Shown here in pieces: positions 321 to 14,887 of a DNA stretch of 64,000 nt. Below the pieces are notes generated by a model that saw only the letters and a program-made list of their open reading frames with translations, ran no database searches and was not told where the DNA came from. The stretch's first letter is position 1. Every line of letters begins with the position of its first letter. The stretch lies in the sequence record MT446408.1; one strand, written 5' to 3'. The position numbers and the translations under genes were made by a program. The DNA comes from Escherichia virus TH35.

Positions 321-647
321 ATGAACGAAAAAGAGACGAAGCAACGCGAACGTGCAACACACGTCGGAATCGTTGAGTCCTTCCTTAATACAAGATTGAA
401 TTCAAGCCTGACAATCATGCGATTCCTGGGTCAACCAGACAGAATCAAATTTATTTTTGCCGCAAATCCGGTATCGCTGTACATCCCTGTTGAATCCATG
501 GCGTACTTAGTGCGCGACGAGAAAGGATGGAAGATACCAAACACAACTGTTTTCTTCAGCCATGTTGATGGTGAGATGTTTGAACGAAAAGAAGATTGCC
601 ATTTTATTCCAGTATATCTGGACCTTGAAAGCGTAGTGGAGTTATAA
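321..647 (+). CDS. hypothetical protein (108 aa)
   Basis: ORF with AAAGG RBS 9 nt upstream; TAATG stop/start overlap with downstream helicase. Confidence 0.55.
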   Translation: MNEKETKQRERATHVGIVESFLNTRLNSSLTIMRFLGQPDRIKFIFAANPVSLYIPVESMAYLVRDEKGWKIPNTTVFFSHVDGEMFERKEDCHFIPVYLDLESVVEL

Positions 648-1831
648 TGAACATTCCAGAATTTAATGATGAGCCAGTGATTCAGTTTAACGCGCAACAA
701 ATCGACGCCATCGAGAAAGCCGTTGCATGGTACAAGCGATTGCAGGACGGTAAAACGACGAAGCGCGTGTTTTTCATCGCTGGCTATGCAGGGACTGGTA
801 AAACCTCTATTGCTCGCGAGATTGTGCGCCGCTGTGTCGGTGAGTACGGCGCTATCTATATTGCGCCGACCGGAAAGGCTGCAAGCCGATTAAAGCAAAA
901 AGGCTGTCGTGGCGCTAAGACCCTTCACCAGTTCATCTATAACGTGCGCGGCGTAAATGACGACAATGAGCCAATCTTTTCGAGAAAGTCAAAGCTGGAT
1001 GAAAGGCCGCACCTTGTTGTACTCGATGAAGCGTCGATGGTTGGCGAGTGGGACACAGAGCGCCTTCTTGATCACCGCATCCCTGTCCTGGCATTAGGCG
1101 ACATTGGACAAGTCCCTCCGGTAAAAGCCGCCGCCTACTTTACTGAAGATGCCGTTGACGTACTGTTAACCGAAATCATGCGGCAAGGGAAAGAGTCCAA
1201 CATAATCCGCGCCTCCTTCTTCGTGCGCCAAGGCAACCGCCTTCCTCCGCGTGAATACGATGACGTCAAAGTATTGGCAGAATCGCCGCGCGTTACTGCA
1301 TTGAAGAAATTCATGGGCGAAGATGATCAAATTATTTGCTCCTATAATAGCACCAAAGATAAATGGAATTCATTATTACGGCAAGTGAGCGGACGTATAA
1401 CGCCAATGCCAGGAATCGGCGAGAAGGTTATTTGCACCTTCAACCAACACGGGCCAGGATTCTGTAATGGCGAGCAAGGGATTGTTATTAGCTATGAGCC
1501 AGTGCCGGACTTTGAAAGGGATGAAGACGAGTCGAATGAAATAATGTATGTCAACTTACGTTCATTAACTGATGGTAAAGATATAAAGGTGAAGATCAAT
1601 CCTCTTTCCTTCTCTACTGATCAGGAAGTGCGCAAAGAAGCGCAACGCGCTGTTGGTGGGATGGACTATGGCTATGTCATCACGGTGCACAAATCGCAAG
1701 GCAGCGAGTGGGACAATGTGTGCGTGCTGGAAGAAATCTTGCGCGGCGTTCCGTACTCCAAGATGATGTACACCGCTATCACCCGTGCTAAGAAGAATCT
1801 GACCGTGTACCGTGATTTGAAAGCGCGTTAA
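647..1831 (+). CDS. SF1 DNA helicase, Dda/RecD-like
   Basis: Walker A GYAGTGKT, Walker B VVLDEASM, C-terminal VITVHKSQGSEWDNV motif typical of RecD/Dda-type helicases. Confidence 0.85.
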   Translation: MNIPEFNDEPVIQFNAQQIDAIEKAVAWYKRLQDGKTTKRVFFIAGYAGTGKTSIAREIVRRCVGEYGAIYIAPTGKAASRLKQKGCRGAKTLHQFIYNVRGVNDDNEPIFSRKSKLDERPHLVVLDEASMVGEWDTERLLDHRIPVLALGDIGQVPPVKAAAYFTEDAVDVLLTEIMRQGKESNIIRASFFVRQGNRLPPREYDDVKVLAESPRVTALKKFMGEDDQIICSYNSTKDKWNSLLRQVSGRITPMPGIGEKVICTFNQHGPGFCNGEQGIVISYEPVPDFERDEDESNEIMYVNLRSLTDGKDIKVKINPLSFSTDQEVRKEAQRAVGGMDYGYVITVHKSQGSEWDNVCVLEEILRGVPYSKMMYTAITRAKKNLTVYRDLKAR

Positions 1832-1990
1832 TGTTGACGTAAATTTACGAAAAATAAAACTGAAAATCAGTTTAATTAAAGTGGCATTGCCGCCATAGTT
1901 TTTAGTTGCTACTGGCGGCGACTGAAGGCATAATTAAGTTATCCCAAACGGGGAATATAAAATAAACTAATTTATTTAAGGACTGTGAAT

Positions 1991-2830
1991 ATGGCCGAAG
2001 CAATCAAAGTATTATCTAAAGAAGAAAAACAAGCAGCCGCAGCAGAACGTCGTCGCGTGGCTGAAGAAAAACGCCTGGCTAAAAAGAAAGAAGCCGAAGA
2101 AAAACGCCAGAAGCGTGAGCAGGAAAAACAAGCCAAGCGTGAAGAAGCTGCGCTGAAACGCAAGCAGGCTGCTGATGAGAAGGCTCAGAAGCGTGCTGAA
2201 GAAGCAGCTAAGAAAGCTAAAGAGCGTGCAGAAAAGGCTGCTGCTAAGAAAGCAGAGCGTGAAGCCGCTAAAGCAGCAAAAGAAATCGAAAAGGCAAAGG
2301 CTAAAGAAGAAGCCAAGCGCCTGAAAGCTGAGCAGGCTGCGGCCAAGAAAGCAGAGCGTGATCAAGCCCGTGCTGCAGCGAAGGCCGAAAAAGAGAAGGC
2401 CAAAGAAGAAGCTAAAGCGAAACGCAAGGCAGAGCGTGAAGCTGCTAAGATTGCGGCGAAAGAAGCTGCAGAACAGCAGAAAGAACAGCGTAAGAAAGAA
2501 GCTGAAGAACGTCGCAAAGCCATCGCAGAACGTAAGGCTGCTAAAAAGGCAAACGGTCAGCGTCGTGCAAAAGCCACTCACTTCATCTACACTGGCAATG
2601 GCCTGAGCCAGCCGCAAGAGCATTCCACCCGTGGACGCGTTCTGGCGGCGATCAAAGAAGGCGAAGTTGGCGTGGCGCAGTCTATCGATGAGCTGGGCGA
2701 AAAAGTTAAAGATCAACTGTTTGGCGCTTCCGTTCGCTCCTACCTGAGCAAGCTGGAAGAGATGGGCCACATCGAGTTTGTCGATGTTGAATCCAACGAC
2801 GATGCCGAAGACGGTGATCAAGCGGAATAA
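1991..2830 (+). CDS. Lys/Ala/Glu-rich low-complexity charged protein with small acidic C-terminal domain
   Basis: ATG 1991 with AAGGA RBS (track start 1985 is GTG); about 200 aa of KAE repeats then HFIYTGNGL...DDAEDGDQAE; promoter-like TTGCTA-17-CATAAT upstream, terminator downstream. Confidence 0.65.
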   Translation: MAEAIKVLSKEEKQAAAAERRRVAEEKRLAKKKEAEEKRQKREQEKQAKREEAALKRKQAADEKAQKRAEEAAKKAKERAEKAAAKKAEREAAKAAKEIEKAKAKEEAKRLKAEQAAAKKAERDQARAAAKAEKEKAKEEAKAKRKAEREAAKIAAKEAAEQQKEQRKKEAEERRKAIAERKAAKKANGQRRAKATHFIYTGNGLSQPQEHSTRGRVLAAIKEGEVGVAQSIDELGEKVKDQLFGASVRSYLSKLEEMGHIEFVDVESNDDAEDGDQAE

Positions 2831-2856
2831 CCTGTAGGACGGTTATAGCGGTAATT

Positions 2857-2884
2857 GACCCACACTTGTTGTGGGTCTTTTTTT
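2857..2884 (+). terminator. rho-independent terminator
   Basis: hairpin GACCCACA-cttgtt-GTGGGTC followed by T7 run. Confidence 0.6.
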
Positions 2885-2969
2885 CGTCTGTACTAAATAG
2901 AAATGACTTGTTGCTGTAAAATAATTTAGCTATTATACTTCTCATATCACCCACAAAGGACAAATGAAC

Positions 2970-3959
2970 ATGAAACAACCTGTAATGATTATCGGCGGCG
3001 GTTTGGCAGGACTTATTACCGCGTGTCACTTCCCGAACTCCATTGTGTACGAAGCAGGGGAACGAGCGCCACAGCACAAGGCGCTGCTACGCTTTCGCGG
3101 CGAAGAAGTAAGCCGTATTACCGGAATCCCTTTTAAGGCCGTGACAGTCGATAAGGCTGTGTATTTTCGTGGTAACTACTATCACGACCACTGCCCGATT
3201 AACCTTGCCAACATGTACTCTATGAAAGTCACCAACCAGTTTGGCAGCCGCTCAATCATGAAGCTTCAAACCGCTACGCGCTACATAGCGCCGGATGACT
3301 TTTATGATCAACTTGTCGATAAGCTTGGCGACCGTATATTCTTCAATACTCCGGTCGACACCCTCTGCGGCTATAGCGAGACGCCAATCATCAATACATC
3401 GCCGCTGCCCGTCATGATGAAGCTTGCTGGCATTGATCAAAAGCTCGACTTCTCGTTTGATAAGGCAAATATACGCGTTTATCGTTTTAAGATTAAGCGC
3501 AAGTGTGAACTGTATCAAACAATTTACTTCCCTGACTATTCTGTAAGGACTTACCGCGCATCAATTACTGGTGACACGCTGATTATCGAAACAATTCCAT
3601 TGGTAAGCGTCAGCGCGGCAGCAGTTGAAGCCGCTGGCGGCATTACCCGTTATCGCGACATGAAGTTGCGTGCAGAAGTGGACGAAGTTCTGACCGCTTT
3701 TGGTCTTTCATGGAATGACATCTCTTTGGAAGAAGTTGAAAAGGTTGACCAGAAGTATGGCAAGATTGTCGACATTCCTAAAGACTTGCGCCACGCCTTA
3801 CTGCTCCAGCTGACTATGGATTTGAACGTGTTTAGTGTCGGTCGATTTGCTACATGGCGCAACATCTTGCTTGATGACGTAGCTCATGACCTTGTTGAAG
3901 TTGAAAAACTCATCAAAGCAAATAACTATCAAAAATTTGCTTATATTGCTAATAAATAA
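2970..3959 (+). CDS. FAD/NAD(P)-binding Rossmann-fold oxidoreductase
   Basis: N-terminal GxGxxG dinucleotide-binding motif VMIIGGGLAGL; start taken at second ATG (2970) for RBS spacing, track start 2964. Confidence 0.6.
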   Translation: MKQPVMIIGGGLAGLITACHFPNSIVYEAGERAPQHKALLRFRGEEVSRITGIPFKAVTVDKAVYFRGNYYHDHCPINLANMYSMKVTNQFGSRSIMKLQTATRYIAPDDFYDQLVDKLGDRIFFNTPVDTLCGYSETPIINTSPLPVMMKLAGIDQKLDFSFDKANIRVYRFKIKRKCELYQTIYFPDYSVRTYRASITGDTLIIETIPLVSVSAAAVEAAGGITRYRDMKLRAEVDEVLTAFGLSWNDISLEEVEKVDQKYGKIVDIPKDLRHALLLQLTMDLNVFSVGRFATWRNILLDDVAHDLVEVEKLIKANNYQKFAYIANK

Positions 3960-4004
3960 TTTGCTTTCTGCTTCAATGAGAGTATACTTTAATCATTGAA
4001 GCAG
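3960..4004 (+). promoter_or_regulatory. sigma70-like promoter with 12-bp inverted repeat bracketing the -10
   Basis: TTTGCT(3960-3965)-17 bp-TATACT(3983-3988); palindrome CTGCTTCAATGA 3968-3979 / TCATTGAAGCAG 3993-4004. Confidence 0.4.
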
Positions 4005-4025
4005 AACTCATAAGAGGAAATGAAG

Positions 4026-4472
4026 ATGAAACGCATCACTGGAATCGCGCTTGCCGCAACTGCTATTCTCGGAACCATGTATATGGAAGCGACTGAAGCC
4101 GCTGTCCGTACTTCCGATTCAATCGCTGTTTACGATTGCGAAGCGATGGACGGCAAGACCGCAGCGACGACTGGCGCAACAATTACCACTTACATCGGTG
4201 TGAACGAGCAAGAAGGTCTGAATATTCAGATTCAGGGATTCACCGGAAAAGGTGCCAACCGGACTCCGTGGATGCAGCGTTTCACTTTCGTTCAGCCTCG
4301 TTCAACTGGCGGCTTTATCAACCTGATTGGTGAAAACCGTTCTGGTGCAGAAATCTTTACATCAATTAGTTCTAATAATGAACCAAAGAAAAGTTTTCAG
4401 TTGCTTTATAACGCACAATTCGTTTATCATTGCACCTTCTCTGGTGATCAGCAACTAGTTAACTACCGTTAA
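4026..4472 (+). CDS. secreted/periplasmic protein of unknown function
   Basis: N-terminal signal peptide MKRITGIALAATAILG...ATEAA; AAGAGGA RBS 7 nt upstream of ATG 4026 (track start 4020). Confidence 0.6.
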   Translation: MKRITGIALAATAILGTMYMEATEAAVRTSDSIAVYDCEAMDGKTAATTGATITTYIGVNEQEGLNIQIQGFTGKGANRTPWMQRFTFVQPRSTGGFINLIGENRSGAEIFTSISSNNEPKKSFQLLYNAQFVYHCTFSGDQQLVNYR

Positions 4473-4485
4473 TAGGATAATTAAA

Positions 4486-5289
4486 ATGAAAGTTGAATTA
4501 ATTCGATACACCCAAGATGCACTTGACCTTTTGCTGGAAACAAAGAATACGCGCATGACTGGTAAGCCAGTCTCTGAGATGACAGAATCAGAGAAGCAAG
4601 AGCACTGGCGCTACATGCTTGACACCATCAAGTCACCTTTCGACTTTGTTGACTATATCTTTGACATCACTGATGTATCAAAGAATATGACTCATCAGAT
4701 GGTGCGCACACGAACAGGTGCATATCAAGAACGCACAAGCCGCGCTCAGGAGTCGTCAGCATTTGATGCGATTCGTCCTGCCAAATTTACTTACCCAGAG
4801 GATGATCCAAAGGGATGGACTCGTCATGACGAGAAGGCTGCTGAACTGGCAGAGAAATGGGATGATGCAATGGCAACCATTGACGCCCTATACCAAGAAC
4901 TTCGCGCGGCTGGCGCAGAGATTCAAGATGCACGTGCCGTGTTGCCTTCTAATATGCAAACGCATATCATGGCAAAGTTTAATTTGCGCACCCTGCAGCA
5001 AATGGCCTCTAACCGCTTGTGCACACGTACTCAAGGCGAGTATCAAGAAGTATTCCGTGCAATGGTTGCGGAAGTCCTTAAGGTGCACCCGTGGGCTAAT
5101 CCTTTACTACAGCCGCAGTGCATCGGTATGGGTAAGTGCGCATTCCCTCGTCACGGTAAGGCCCATTGCCCATGGTATCGTGATTGGATGGATACCACTG
5201 CACAGCAAGAAGAATTACGCATTCAGTTTTGGAATGCAATGCCAATCACCAATAATCCAGTGGCCAAAGATGGAGTATCAAAAGGATGA
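4486..5289 (+). CDS. thyX: flavin-dependent thymidylate synthase-like protein (ThyX family), non-canonical RTR motif
   Basis: ThyX-like blocks PFDFVDYIFDI, ARAVLPSNMQTHIMAKFNLRTLQQM and C-terminal HCPW; signature reads RTR-x7-T instead of RHR-x7-S. Confidence 0.7.
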   Translation: MKVELIRYTQDALDLLLETKNTRMTGKPVSEMTESEKQEHWRYMLDTIKSPFDFVDYIFDITDVSKNMTHQMVRTRTGAYQERTSRAQESSAFDAIRPAKFTYPEDDPKGWTRHDEKAAELAEKWDDAMATIDALYQELRAAGAEIQDARAVLPSNMQTHIMAKFNLRTLQQMASNRLCTRTQGEYQEVFRAMVAEVLKVHPWANPLLQPQCIGMGKCAFPRHGKAHCPWYRDWMDTTAQQEELRIQFWNAMPITNNPVAKDGVSKG

Positions 5290-6158
5290 GTATCAAAAAT
5301 AACCAAATCTTAAACGTATTCGACCTTGACGGAACTCTGTTTGATGACCGTTGGCGCTTAGACCGCATCAAGGTGGCAGGTCCGTTGTCAGACTATGATG
5401 ATTATCACAGCGGTATTGGTTATGATCAGTTCTATCCTCACATTGCATCAGCAGTAGAGTCGGCATCTCTTCGCGGTGAGGCGGTTGAATATTGGACTGC
5501 AAGGCCAGAAAAATACAGACAAGTGACTTTTGAACGTCTGGACAATGTTTTTCCTTTTGATGAATTTACAATCAAGATGAGAGACTATGGCGACAAACGT
5601 CCATCAACTATTATGAAATCTGCATGGCTATCGCACGCTTTGCGGCACGGCGATTATCGAATCATCAATGTATTCGACGACCGACAAGACGTACTCGCGC
5701 GGATGCAAGATGAAGCATTGTGTTATAATTCCGTTGCTCAAAATAAAATCGCTTTTACATTTAATCTTTGCAAGGCAGGTGAAGTGGTGCAACAATTAGC
5801 AATTGATCCAAGCGCAACAGGGCAAGAAGAGACTAAGTCTGTGGAAGTTGAACAATCTCCGGCAACTGCCGCCGATATTCTTGATGCAATGGCAGCAACC
5901 TTCCGTGAGCGCAACGCTGTCTATGGCGATAACGCTGTGATGGTAGGTCAGGTTATGCAAGTGCTTTTCCCTAATGGCGTGACGTTGAAAACGCCGGAAG
6001 ACTACCACATGTGGCATCTGTTCGAGCTTAAGATTGTCAAGCTTACACGCTTCGCAATCAGCGGCCTGAAGCACGAAGACTCTATACACGATGATGGTGT
6101 TTACAGCGCCATGTGTGAACGTCTTGTTAACACCCATAATATTAATTTCAATAAATAG
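5286..6158 (+). CDS. HAD-superfamily phosphatase with C-terminal domain of unknown function
   Basis: HAD motif I FDLDGTLFDD near N-terminus; ATGA overlap with thyX-like gene. Confidence 0.6.
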   Translation: MSIKNNQILNVFDLDGTLFDDRWRLDRIKVAGPLSDYDDYHSGIGYDQFYPHIASAVESASLRGEAVEYWTARPEKYRQVTFERLDNVFPFDEFTIKMRDYGDKRPSTIMKSAWLSHALRHGDYRIINVFDDRQDVLARMQDEALCYNSVAQNKIAFTFNLCKAGEVVQQLAIDPSATGQEETKSVEVEQSPATAADILDAMAATFRERNAVYGDNAVMVGQVMQVLFPNGVTLKTPEDYHMWHLFELKIVKLTRFAISGLKHEDSIHDDGVYSAMCERLVNTHNINFNK

Positions 6159-6202
6159 TTTACTTGTGCGTTTCGATGAGTTATCTTTATCTCATCGAAA
6201 CG
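6159..6202 (+). promoter_or_regulatory. sigma70-like promoter with perfect 12-bp inverted repeat bracketing the -10
   Basis: TTTACT(6159-6164)-17 bp-TATCTT(6182-6187); CGTTTCGATGAG 6169-6180 / CTCATCGAAACG 6191-6202; downstream CATCGAAACGAA shared with promoter at 13088. Confidence 0.4.
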
Positions 6203-6222
6203 AAGTCCAAAAGGATAAATAA

Positions 6223-6906
6223 ATGAAAAAAGTAATTGTTGTAACTGGCTGCAATTCCGGTCTTGGTAAATCCATTTTTGACACCCTTGGCGCTTACGGT
6301 CATGAAGTTGTCGGTATTGATTTGGAGAACGGCTATGACATCCGTAACGCGAAACAGATGAAAGAGCTTCTCTCTCAATACGACGTAGAAGGCTTGATCA
6401 ACTGCGCTGGCGTCAACTCCAACAACTGGTTCGAAGATGTTAACTACGAAGAGTTCAATCGCGTTATGCACACCAACGCCTTCTCTTTCGTCAACACGAC
6501 TCAGGCCGCGCTGAAAAGTCTTATTGACAACAAAGGTTTTGTGATCAACATCGTTTCCAACGCTGCGCATATTCCTATGACGTCCAGCTTGTGTTATAAT
6601 GCTTCCAAGGCTGCTGCGCTCATGATTAGCAAGCAGATGGCTCACGAGCTTACGCCTAAATACGGGATCACGGTGTTCTCTATTAGTCCTAACAAGCTAC
6701 GTGGTACTGGCATGTCCAAACAGATTGAAGATGCTGTTTGCGCGACTCGCGACTGGACTCCTGAGTATGCTGCTGAATACCAGAAAAAGGCGTTGATGAA
6801 TGGATTGGAGACTGAGCCGCAAGTAATTGCTGACTTCATTCGACATATCTTAATTACGGGCGCATGGCGCTTTATGTCTGGTACTGATATTCCATTTGGG
6901 AAATAA
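6223..6906 (+). CDS. short-chain dehydrogenase/reductase (SDR) family oxidoreductase
   Basis: TGxxxGxG cofactor motif VTGCNSGLGK, NCAG, catalytic YxxxK (YNASK). Confidence 0.7.
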   Translation: MKKVIVVTGCNSGLGKSIFDTLGAYGHEVVGIDLENGYDIRNAKQMKELLSQYDVEGLINCAGVNSNNWFEDVNYEEFNRVMHTNAFSFVNTTQAALKSLIDNKGFVINIVSNAAHIPMTSSLCYNASKAAALMISKQMAHELTPKYGITVFSISPNKLRGTGMSKQIEDAVCATRDWTPEYAAEYQKKALMNGLETEPQVIADFIRHILITGAWRFMSGTDIPFGK

Positions 6907-6909
6907 ATC

Positions 6910-7080
6910 ATGACTATCAAAGTTGTTGTAGAAGTGATTGGCGACTTGGCAGAAGTGAAGATTGATCAAGAAGGCGTTGGATTTGAAGTAATAAGAATCG
7001 AAAACGCAAAGATTAACCACGAGCGCGTCGGTTCCATTGAGACTTATTCCATAGAAGGCAACACAGTAATTAATCAATAA
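6910..7080 (+). CDS. small hypothetical protein (56 aa)
   Basis: ORF below track threshold found by reading the 6907-7100 gap; MTIKVVVEVIGDLAEV...; weak RBS. Confidence 0.35.
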   Translation: MTIKVVVEVIGDLAEVKIDQEGVGFEVIRIENAKINHERVGSIETYSIEGNTVINQ

Positions 7081-7100
7081 TATTTAATTAAGGAAACAAA

Positions 7101-7652
7101 ATGCCACATTTTAAAATTGAACAAATCGCCCTGTCAATTCCATGTGCTCAGCGCGCACAGAATTTCCTGGCTAAAATCGGCCTGACAGAATGGTTCCATG
7201 ATCACGTTGTTGCTACTGGTCGCGTATTTGAAGCTGATGTCTTTAAGGGTCAGCGCGGCGATTGCACCAACGAAGCTGACTTGCGCTTCAACTATCAGGC
7301 TGGCAACGGCACCGATGGCGGCGCTGGTAAGCCTCTTGAGCTTGAAATTCTTGACTATACAAAAGGTTGCAACTGGATTCACGAAAACATCGAATACATC
7401 GATGCGCACGACAATCAGGTTAGCCATCTTGGTATGCACGTGACTGCCGCTGAACTTGCTGAATGGCGTAAGTTCTTTAAAGAAGAAGGTATTCAGGTTG
7501 CACAGGAAGTTGTAACTGACTCTCATACCAACCCGAACATTGCTGGTCAACGTCGTTACAACTATGTGATCTTTGATACGCGTGAAATCATCGGCGTTGA
7601 TTTGAAGTTTATCGTGCGCTTGAATCAAGACGGTACTCCGTACACTGTATAA
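7101..7652 (+). CDS. putative VOC (glyoxalase/bleomycin-resistance/dioxygenase-like) family protein
   Basis: two beta-alpha-beta-like modules starting FKIEQIALSIP and SHLGMHVTAAEL; AAGGAAA RBS; assignment by fold-pattern only. Confidence 0.4.
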   Translation: MPHFKIEQIALSIPCAQRAQNFLAKIGLTEWFHDHVVATGRVFEADVFKGQRGDCTNEADLRFNYQAGNGTDGGAGKPLELEILDYTKGCNWIHENIEYIDAHDNQVSHLGMHVTAAELAEWRKFFKEEGIQVAQEVVTDSHTNPNIAGQRRYNYVIFDTREIIGVDLKFIVRLNQDGTPYTV

Positions 7653-14026: not shown

Positions 14027-14887
14027 ATGTCTAAGAAAGAAACTACCGAAGTTGCAGTGAAAAACACCCAGATGTCCGCTATGGCTGATTTTGTCGACAT
14101 GACCGATTTTGGCGCTGGTTTTGAAGGTGCCGATGCCGATGCGTATGCCATTCCTTTTATCGTCGTACTGCAGAAGATGTCTCCTATGGTCGACGAAGAT
14201 GATCCAAAACACGTTCCTGGCGCAAAAGCTGGCATGCTTTACAACACCGTTACTGGTGAGTTGTATGACGGCAAGAAAGGCGTGCAGATCATCCCTTGCG
14301 CATTCAAACGCACCTTCATCCTTTGGGGCGGTCGCGAGTCCGACGATAAAGGCTTTAAAGGTGAATTCACCAAAGAGCACGTTGATGCAGAAGTAGCGGC
14401 AGGCCGCGCTGTTGAGATCAACGGTAAAGTGTTTGTGCCGGACGAAAACGGCAAAGTGCACGAGAAGAAATCGCCTTACTACGCAGATACACGTAACCAC
14501 TTCGTAATTCTGTTGAACGAAGAAACTGGTGAATTTGGTAGCGCAATGTTGTCTTTGACTTCTTCGATGATCAAGCCGTCTCGCATGCTGATGACCGCGC
14601 TGCAGCAGAAGAAAGTTCAGACTCCGCAAGGTCTGAAAACGCCGCCGACCTTTATGAACATCGTTCGCATGGGTACTGCATCCCAGTCCAAAGACGGGAA
14701 CACCTGGTCTGTTCTGAAGTTTGAGTTGGAAGGTCTGGTGCAGGACAAAGGTCTGTATGAAGTCGCCAAAGCATTCCACAACGATGTAGTTGGCGGCAAC
14801 GTTAACATTGACCGCAGCAAGCAGGAAGAAGCAAGCGGTGCCGCTGGCCCTGTTAATGAAACTCCGACCGACGCAGAAGAGTTTTAA
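14027..14887 (+). CDS. hypothetical protein; possible ssDNA-binding/annealing protein
   Basis: 286 aa ending in acidic tail ...ETPTDAEEF (terminal Phe) reminiscent of phage SSB C-termini; function inferred only. Confidence 0.45.
   Translation: MSKKETTEVAVKNTQMSAMADFVDMTDFGAGFEGADADAYAIPFIVVLQKMSPMVDEDDPKHVPGAKAGMLYNTVTGELYDGKKGVQIIPCAFKRTFILWGGRESDDKGFKGEFTKEHVDAEVAAGRAVEINGKVFVPDENGKVHEKKSPYYADTRNHFVILLNEETGEFGSAMLSLTSSMIKPSRMLMTALQQKKVQTPQGLKTPPTFMNIVRMGTASQSKDGNTWSVLKFELEGLVQDKGLYEVAKAFHNDVVGGNVNIDRSKQEEASGAAGPVNETPTDAEEF

Follow-up and report, generated by a model that had tools for sequence, protein, structure and literature searches.

The Sulfolobus chromatin protein Sso10a and the KfrA proteins of RK2 and R751 combine a winged-helix or helix-turn-helix (HTH) DNA-binding head with a long alpha-helical rod, and have an abundant or architectural role. 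Here, we describe a protein of comparable layout encoded by Escherichia virus TH35 (sequence record MT446408.1), from which a stretch of 64,000 nucleotides (nt), hereafter the window, was analyzed. The gene (1991..2830, plus strand) encodes 279 amino acids (aa) followed by a stop codon and belongs to PHROG 4765. As in Sso10a and KfrA, a small module of predicted winged-helix type is joined to a helical rod rich in Ala, Glu, Lys and Arg. However, the order is reversed, the rod being N-terminal in the phage protein, and this rod is two-faced with an 11/3 periodicity and has no heptad seam. It is also much longer than that of Sso10a. Furthermore, neither KfrA_N nor any HTH family gave a significant Pfam match with the protein, with its C-terminal domain or with 23 family members.

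A winged-helix globular domain associated with a long Lys/Ala-rich segment also recalls the linker histones H1/H5 and the bacterial H1-like proteins Hc1 and AlgP. However, the Lys/Ala segment of the phage protein is N-terminal, predicted to be helical, contains 20% Glu and is near charge-balanced in most homologues. Such a helical, Glu-containing and near charge-balanced rod would therefore not be a disordered polycation as in H1-like proteins. The linker-histone profile gave no Pfam match with the C-terminal domain (E <= 10) or with the 23 family members (E <= 5). Judging by this comparison, the phage protein would have its nearest architectural counterparts among the DNA organizers made of a winged helix and a rod (Sso10a and KfrA) and among linker histones, while being a member of none of these groups. 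An earlier note, made from the sequence alone, had listed a histone-like or nucleoid-associated function among several options; with its predicted winged helix and its conserved basic residues, the protein fits this option best. Hence, we tentatively propose, with a little less than even confidence, that it is a putative abundant, non-enzymatic protein of the replication module that binds DNA in an architectural role and may also enter virions.

The gene is real, translated and under strong purifying selection. Compared with six Wifcevirus genomes, its coding sequence (CDS) shows 3-18 substitutions in each and not a single indel; third codon positions hold 50 of the 52 substitutions, nearly all of them synonymous. 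The 18 nt differences with ECML-117 are all synonymous, in the low-complexity part too, and the two proteins are 100% identical. The product was also detected by mass spectrometry (MS) in CsCl-purified particles of two relatives, vB_Eco4M-7 (gp83; 7 peptides, 25.8% coverage, score 1197.6) and ECML-117 (gp81; 2 peptides) (PMC7048862). These data bear out the earlier description of a Lys/Ala/Glu-rich low-complexity protein of 279 aa for the open reading frame (ORF), its composition and its coding capacity, and the MS peptides contradict the one finding named beforehand as fatal to it, an absence of translation in the plus frame. The antisense ORFs rich in Phe and Leu had been regarded as composition artefacts, and rightly so, because the sense strand is purine-rich. 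For instance, in the frame of the 269-aa F/L/S-rich antisense ORF (2012..2821, minus strand), 16 of the 18 differences with ECML-117 are non-synonymous; this ORF is a composition artefact and not a gene.

The C-terminal part of the protein (residues 191-279) has a mixed composition and a net charge of -8. It begins with a basic linker and a first beta-strand (residues 189-205; 2555..2605, plus strand) showing the conserved motif G-x-R-R-x-K-A-T-H-(F/I). In an alignment of 25 sequences (A1) and in its trimmed version (A2), R192 is invariant while R191 and T196 are nearly so. The following core (residues 206-264; 2606..2782, plus strand) was modeled with AlphaFold2 (AF2). Using the 25-sequence alignment, the C-terminal domain reached a predicted local distance difference test score (pLDDT) of 88.6 and a predicted template modeling score (pTM) of 0.75. 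In the model, a strand (197-200) precedes helix H1 (213-222), a second strand (229-231), helices H2 (232-243) and H3 (248-257, VRSYLSKLEE) and a last strand (261-264). It displays the three-helix bundle and flanking strands of a winged helix and can be superposed on known winged-helix domains. Q209, S212, R214, R249 and K254 are invariant in the alignment. According to the i/i+3/i+4 spacing of V248, L252, L255 and M258, R249 and K254 should face outward on H3, the usual recognition helix. A Foldseek search of BFVD returned only family members, and phmmer and profile searches of PDB sequences detected no significant match to any solved structure. The C-terminal domain represents a new sequence family, predicted to adopt a winged-helix fold.

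The domain is followed by an acidic tail, DVESNDDAEDGDQAE (residues 265-279; 2783..2827, plus strand), with a net charge of -8. In homologues, this tail ranges from 3 to 43 residues and from 0 to -18 in net charge and shows no sequence conservation. The globular domain had been described as acidic, which does not hold: the net charge of its core is 0 in the window protein and -2 to +5 in homologues, never strongly acidic, so that the acidity is confined to the tail. The conserved basic residues are located on the linker, the N-terminus of H1 and H3.

The N-terminal part is of a very different composition: residues 1-190 consist of 30% Ala, 24% Lys, 20.5% Glu and 10.5% Arg (85% A/K/E/R) and carry a net charge of +25, for a net charge of +17 over the whole protein. 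The low-complexity part proper, estimated beforehand at about 70% of the protein, covers residues 10-188, a share of 64%. At the DNA level, Tandem Repeats Finder found no real tandem repeat in the gene, only one array of two 15-bp units. AF2 run on the single sequence predicts that residues 10-188 (2018..2554, plus strand) form one uninterrupted alpha-helix with pLDDT > 90, which would be about 27 nm long if straight (0.15 nm per residue). Relative to composition-preserving shuffles, Lys and Arg recur with a period of about 3.68 residues (about 11/3; z = 11.7), and their phase is coherent along the full rod (about 180 residues). Glu and Asp, Gln and the few hydrophobic residues sit about 180 degrees from the Lys/Arg face. 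The opposed phases therefore describe a two-faced helix, basic on one side and acidic on the other.

All 12 homologues examined in detail share this period (3.64-3.70) and have their faces opposed in the same way, and the Lys/Arg signal reaches z values of 5-20 in about 17 of the 22 scorable homologues, though the rod sequences cannot be aligned. This two-faced 11/3 rod, whose design appears to be kept without sequence conservation, would be an unusual helix architecture. The earlier note had expected a long charged single helix or a coiled coil. The continuous helix is supported by AF2, but a heptad coiled coil was rejected: Ile, Leu, Val, Met and Phe make up only about 5% of the rod, and no hydrophobic periodicity of 3.5 residues was detected in the window protein (z = -1.4) or across homologues (z <= 1.4). 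Nor does the rod look like a typical ER/K helix. Like the single alpha-helices of myosin-6/10 and caldesmon, it is a very long E/K/R-rich helix that has no hydrophobic core and is predicted to be stable as a monomer. However, its charges are segregated on opposite faces, it contains 30% Ala and the E(i)->K(i+4) pair is not enriched (z = -0.5; K->E i+4, z = 3.2; E->K i+3, z = 1.7).

Rod length varies from about 31 to about 187 residues across syntenic homologues, the shortest being that of P0026, a protein of 116 aa whose synteny is kept. Since the length is so variable, the linker and the winged helix appear to be the conserved core of the protein and the rod an expandable accessory. Rod charge also varies: most homologue rods are near charge-balanced, with +2 to +12 over 100-190 residues and a single case of -2, and the extreme is the Wifcevirus rod (+26).

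In many homologues, the first residues form a short stretch rich in His, such as MSHTHHHD, MSHGHHNHGVSDAGHSHN, MNQHAHEKHEHHDQ or MHKHHNHDHN. It was found in P0007, P0014, P0015, P0017, P0019 and P0020 as well as in BcepF1 (L003:3605-4270) and Gekk3-15 (L004:3470-4360), and is absent from Wifcevirus and Pbunavirus proteins. This segment might be a metal-binding or regulatory cap.

The PHROG 4765 family is narrow and phage-specific. The protein matches phrog_4765, a family whose function is not known, over residues 1-279 (E = 2.4e-84), and its C-terminal 92 aa alone are sufficient for a match (E = 6.7e-46). With these 92 aa, tblastn retrieved 356 phage records, of which 293 are Pseudomonas phages (essentially Pbunavirus), the others including Serratia MTx, Pantoea PA1, Burkholderia BcepF1, Xanthomonas XcP1 and Aeromonas Gekk3-15. 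When 1.84 billion representatives were scanned exhaustively with HMMER, only 26 proteins were found, the domain being C-terminal in all of them. Other searches were even less productive: a word-indexed search for homologues of the C-terminal domain retrieved three fragments only, a related-locus search with the single protein found only close Wifcevirus contigs and one distant contig, and searches of Pfam, NCBIfam and PADLOC with the protein gave no usable family match. Weak Pfam matches to the nucleoid-associated protein YejK/NdpA (NA37) appeared in four of the 23 family members (best E = 0.0047), well below the curated cut-offs; the family profile matched the YejK chain 9be2_A with E = 0.37 over the region from H1 to H2 (hhalign probability 24%). 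We consider this sequence lead unconvincing.

The gene context is more constant than the sequence. In every lineage inspected (Wifcevirus, Pbunavirus, BcepF1, XcP1, Aeromonas Gekk3-15 and one 70.7-kb metagenomic phage), the order is primase (on the opposite strand), Dda-like helicase, the homologue of the 1991-2830 gene, ThyX, PNKP and polymerase genes. The gene is conserved across the PB1-like myophage supergroup, which includes Wifcevirus, Pbunavirus, Bcepfunavirus, Carpasinavirus and relatives. The Wifcevirus and Pbunavirus literature (genome, proteome, transcriptome and cryo-electron microscopy (cryo-EM) papers) yielded no functional study or function assignment for the protein.

Codon usage suggests that the protein is made in large amounts. 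The window contains 73 non-overlapping ORFs of 90 aa or more; among these, the fraction of codons preferred in E. coli (Fop) is highest in this gene (0.705), whose 25 Arg codons are all CGT or CGC. Once amino-acid composition is corrected for, the gene takes fourth place (z = 5.1), behind the major head gene, ORF 14027-14887 and the tail sheath gene. Since its codons are optimized like those of major head and sheath genes, the product would therefore be a stoichiometric protein rather than a low-copy regulator, and it is probably very abundant. ORF 14027-14887 (plus strand, 286 aa) is worth a mention in its own right, with the second Fop of the window (0.694) and a corrected z of 6.1, above that of the tail sheath gene. 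Its size fits that of vB_Eco4M-7_70, a 31.2-kDa 'unknown protein' with 12 virion MS peptides (PMC7048862), which makes the two a candidate match by size alone.

Three results weigh against a role in DNA organization. Foldseek searches of the PDB with the C-terminal domain returned nothing significant, and no sequence profile ties this domain to a known DNA-binding family. In addition, the rods of most homologues are only weakly basic, and simple polycation-DNA binding is therefore not the conserved property. We keep the proposal of an architectural DNA-binding protein tentative because winged helices can bind proteins too.

If the protein is such an architectural DNA-binding protein, its winged helix and RR-x-K linker would dock on DNA via H3 (invariant R249 and K254) and R214. 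The rod could then act in two ways. One possibility is that its Lys/Arg stripe runs along the duplex, in which case about 27 nm of rod would cover about 80 bp. Alternatively, its basic face may pair with the acidic face of neighboring rods, and this would bundle or bridge the bound DNA. As for the acidic tail, it may fold back onto basic surfaces, modulate binding or recruit partners. As would be expected of an abundant DNA-bound protein, some of it may travel into virions with the DNA or co-purify with them.

The protein could also be a genuine virion component, namely a protein that lies inside the head or lines the capsid, is packaged together with the genome and may be ejected with it. This explanation overlaps and is compatible with an architectural DNA-binding protein, but taken as the primary role we consider it rather unlikely. 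In vB_Eco4M-7, the MS score (1197.6) is similar to that of the portal (1112), although most tryptic peptides of the rod are too short to be detected, and the protein was also found in CsCl-purified ECML-117 (PMC7048862). Besides the codon optimization that it shares with head and sheath genes, several Pbunavirus and XcP1 records label the homologue '(putative) structural protein'. However, the deposited 14-1 record says only 'hypothetical', and the gene sits in a replication and nucleotide-metabolism module, outside the structural module. Moreover, other products of the replication module are present in the same MS samples (PMC7048862), which contain a helicase, a glyoxalase-like protein and a short-chain dehydrogenase/reductase (SDR), and the glyoxalase-like ORF 7101-7652 and the SDR ORF 6223-6906 are likewise among the better codon-optimized ORFs. 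Carry-over of abundant proteins therefore explains the MS data equally well.

A structural lead comes from the Pbunavirus Pa193. Its cryo-EM report describes, under the capsid hexons, an unassigned trimeric helical density of about 16 residues per chain, lacking side-chain features, which its authors were unable to attribute to any gene product (PMC11456595). An Ala/Lys/Glu rod would resemble this density, but a connection between the two is pure speculation. In the passages searched of two Pbunavirus cryo-EM papers, the homologue is not mentioned.

Another explanation is that the protein acts as a replisome adaptor or as a hub resembling single-stranded DNA-binding proteins (SSB), in which the winged helix would bind proteins, as RPA32C does, while the acidic tail would recruit the primase, the polymerase or the neighboring Dda-like helicase. 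Such recruitment is the role of the acidic tails in T4 gp32 and T7 gp2.5. The tail of the window protein is acidic too, the synteny with the Dda-like helicase is invariant and the Bas99 genome has no annotated SSB. However, the tail is not conserved and is almost absent in some homologues (which end in RVE, TVSE or THDPEMI), whereas the conserved residues are basic, lie on H3 and the linker, and suit nucleic acid better than the acidic tail of a partner. Furthermore, the models contain no oligonucleotide/oligosaccharide-binding (OB) fold, only the long helix and the winged helix, and no SSB family matched. A hub would also need less expression than codon usage implies. Therefore, we regard this explanation as unlikely.

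A further view, which we hold to be more doubtful still, is that of a phage analogue of linker histones or protamines packaged with the genome: the winged helix would serve as an anchor, and 27-nm rods would zip basic face to acidic face between neighboring duplexes. Such an analogue would organize DNA in the replication compartment as well as in the capsid, and once co-injected would shield or pre-organize the incoming DNA, which is hypermodified in Pbunavirus relatives. It might also account for the sub-hexon density of Pa193.

The earlier suggestion of a molecular ruler, or of a passive spacer made of a charged single alpha-helix that fixes a distance, is disfavored to the point of being very improbable. 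The single unbroken AF2 helix, the lack of a hydrophobic seam and the enriched K->E i+4 and E->K i+3 pairs would suit a spacer. However, the range of rod lengths (about 31 to about 187 residues) occurs among syntenic homologues in phages of similar genome size, the charges are sorted onto two opposite faces and do not wrap around the helix in the i/i+4 network seen in ER/K helices, and the classic E->K i+4 pattern is not enriched.

Finally, that the protein is TolA-like or belongs to the cell envelope, or that it acts as a DNA mimic or against restriction, is scarcely credible: the acidic tail would suit a mimic, but with 15 residues it is too short for DNA mimicry in a protein of net charge +17, PADLOC found no match and nothing else supports this earlier option, whereas the TolA comparison, proposed beforehand and run here, is negative beyond composition. 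Without composition correction, BLAST aligns the rod to domain II of E. coli TolA with E = 1e-32; under composition-based statistics, the E-value falls to 0.18. The compositions are close (domain II has 40% Ala, 19% Lys and 15% Glu) and domain II is also a long helix. However, TolA has no Lys/Arg periodicity (z = 0.0 versus 11.7), and homology was rejected. The phage protein is cytoplasmic, with the N-terminus MAEAIKVLSKEEK and no hydrophobic segment anywhere, so that it lacks the N-terminal membrane anchor as well as the C-terminal domain (domain III) of TolA; no TolA family of Pfam or NCBIfam matched. The GenBank name 'TolA protein' is an artefact of low-complexity composition. This name coexists among relatives with 'hypothetical protein' and 'putative structural protein', and GenBank also has 'cell wall associated'. 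For instance, the WFC counterpart, HOV52_gp071, is named 'hypothetical protein' and is annotated as 'identical to TolA protein [ECML-117]'.

The surroundings of the gene were also analyzed. Bases 1600-3200 match 28 phage records with 96-99% identity, all of them Wifcevirus myophages of E. coli or Shigella, including WFC, WFH, ECML-117, FEC19, vB_Eco4M-7 and Bas98-101. The longest frame of the ORF that ends at 2830 starts at a GTG (1985), but the ATG at 1991 is preferred on the basis of Shine-Dalgarno spacing and of the WFC annotation, in which the same 840-nt CDS is found. The Shine-Dalgarno sequence AAGGA (1978..1982, plus strand), seen by reading the sequence, lies 8 nt 5' of this ATG. The directly upstream neighbor is the Dda-like helicase gene (647..1831, plus strand). 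Just 3' of it is a weak terminator-like hairpin (1881..1896, plus strand; 5-bp stem and T-rich tail), which is a consensus match only.

A promoter and a terminator of its own had been attributed to the gene; the terminator is supported, and so is a promoter-like site. A candidate sigma-70-like promoter, TTGCTA-17 nt-CATAAT (1906..1934, plus strand), matches the consensus at 9 of 12 positions, and its two hexamers are unchanged in five Wifcevirus relatives. An intrinsic terminator (2857..2884, plus strand) follows the gene: its hairpin (2857-2877) has an 8-bp stem with 5 G-C pairs and a 5-nt loop, followed by a run of seven T. It is annotated as such in WFC, its stem is unchanged among the five relatives, and the homologue of Pseudomonas phage LMA2 also has an equivalent terminator 3' of the gene. 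The gene is a monocistronic-looking unit directly after the Dda-like helicase gene. The intergenic spacer (1832-1990, 159 nt) differs from the five relatives at 0-3 positions, while the CDSs differ at 3-18 mostly synonymous sites. Besides the promoter-like hexamers, this spacer may carry further regulatory signals, for instance the 1881-1896 hairpin.

Downstream, a conserved run of genes (2964-7652, plus strand) includes a 331-aa ORF, ThyX, a haloacid dehalogenase (HAD)/PNKP-like gene, a FabG-like SDR reductase and a glyoxalase-annotated ORF. The 331-aa ORF has an N-terminal dinucleotide-binding-like motif, GGGLAG, and no Pfam match; the glyoxalase-annotated ORF likewise has none. Hypermodified thymidine was recently reported in Pbunavirus relatives (PMC12191111) and marked restriction resistance in Wifceviruses (PMC11990801). 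The 2964-7652 cluster is a candidate thymidine-hypermodification pathway. Within the same region, a 150-aa ORF of the replication module (4020-4472, plus strand) has a signal-peptide-like N-terminus, MKMKRITGIALAATAILGTMYMEATEAA, no Pfam match and an above-average codon optimization (z = 2.5). The ORF is found at the equivalent position in WFC (gp069) but not in the LMA2 region inspected. On the other side of the gene, the antisense ORF 431-700 (minus strand, 89 aa), which overlaps the gene upstream of the helicase (321-647, plus strand), gives no sign of being coding: it shows 7 synonymous and 7 non-synonymous changes versus 13 and 3 for the sense gene. In Pbunavirus, the anti-Druantia gene DadIII-1 is reported to be antisense to a gene adjoining the Dda-like helicase (PMC12390725).

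Among the new results are the winged-helix assignment, the two-faced 11/3 rod, the wide range of rod lengths, the constant position of the gene after the Dda-like helicase, its top rank in raw optimal-codon use and the demonstration that the 'TolA' name is a composition artefact. Protein biophysicists may find the two-faced 11/3 helix design of interest. Should the protein prove to do no more than coat DNA in a routine way, this would be useful to know but unsurprising. Unusually fast replication is reported for Wifceviruses (PMC11990801), and Pbunaviruses are among the Pseudomonas phages most used in therapy; the gene is conserved throughout their supergroup and is one of their most strongly codon-optimized genes, yet it is mislabeled 'TolA' or 'structural protein'. 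Recognizing a predicted winged helix and a charge-segregated rod corrects a propagated annotation error and offers a concrete hypothesis, according to which this protein would bind and bundle DNA in these phages.

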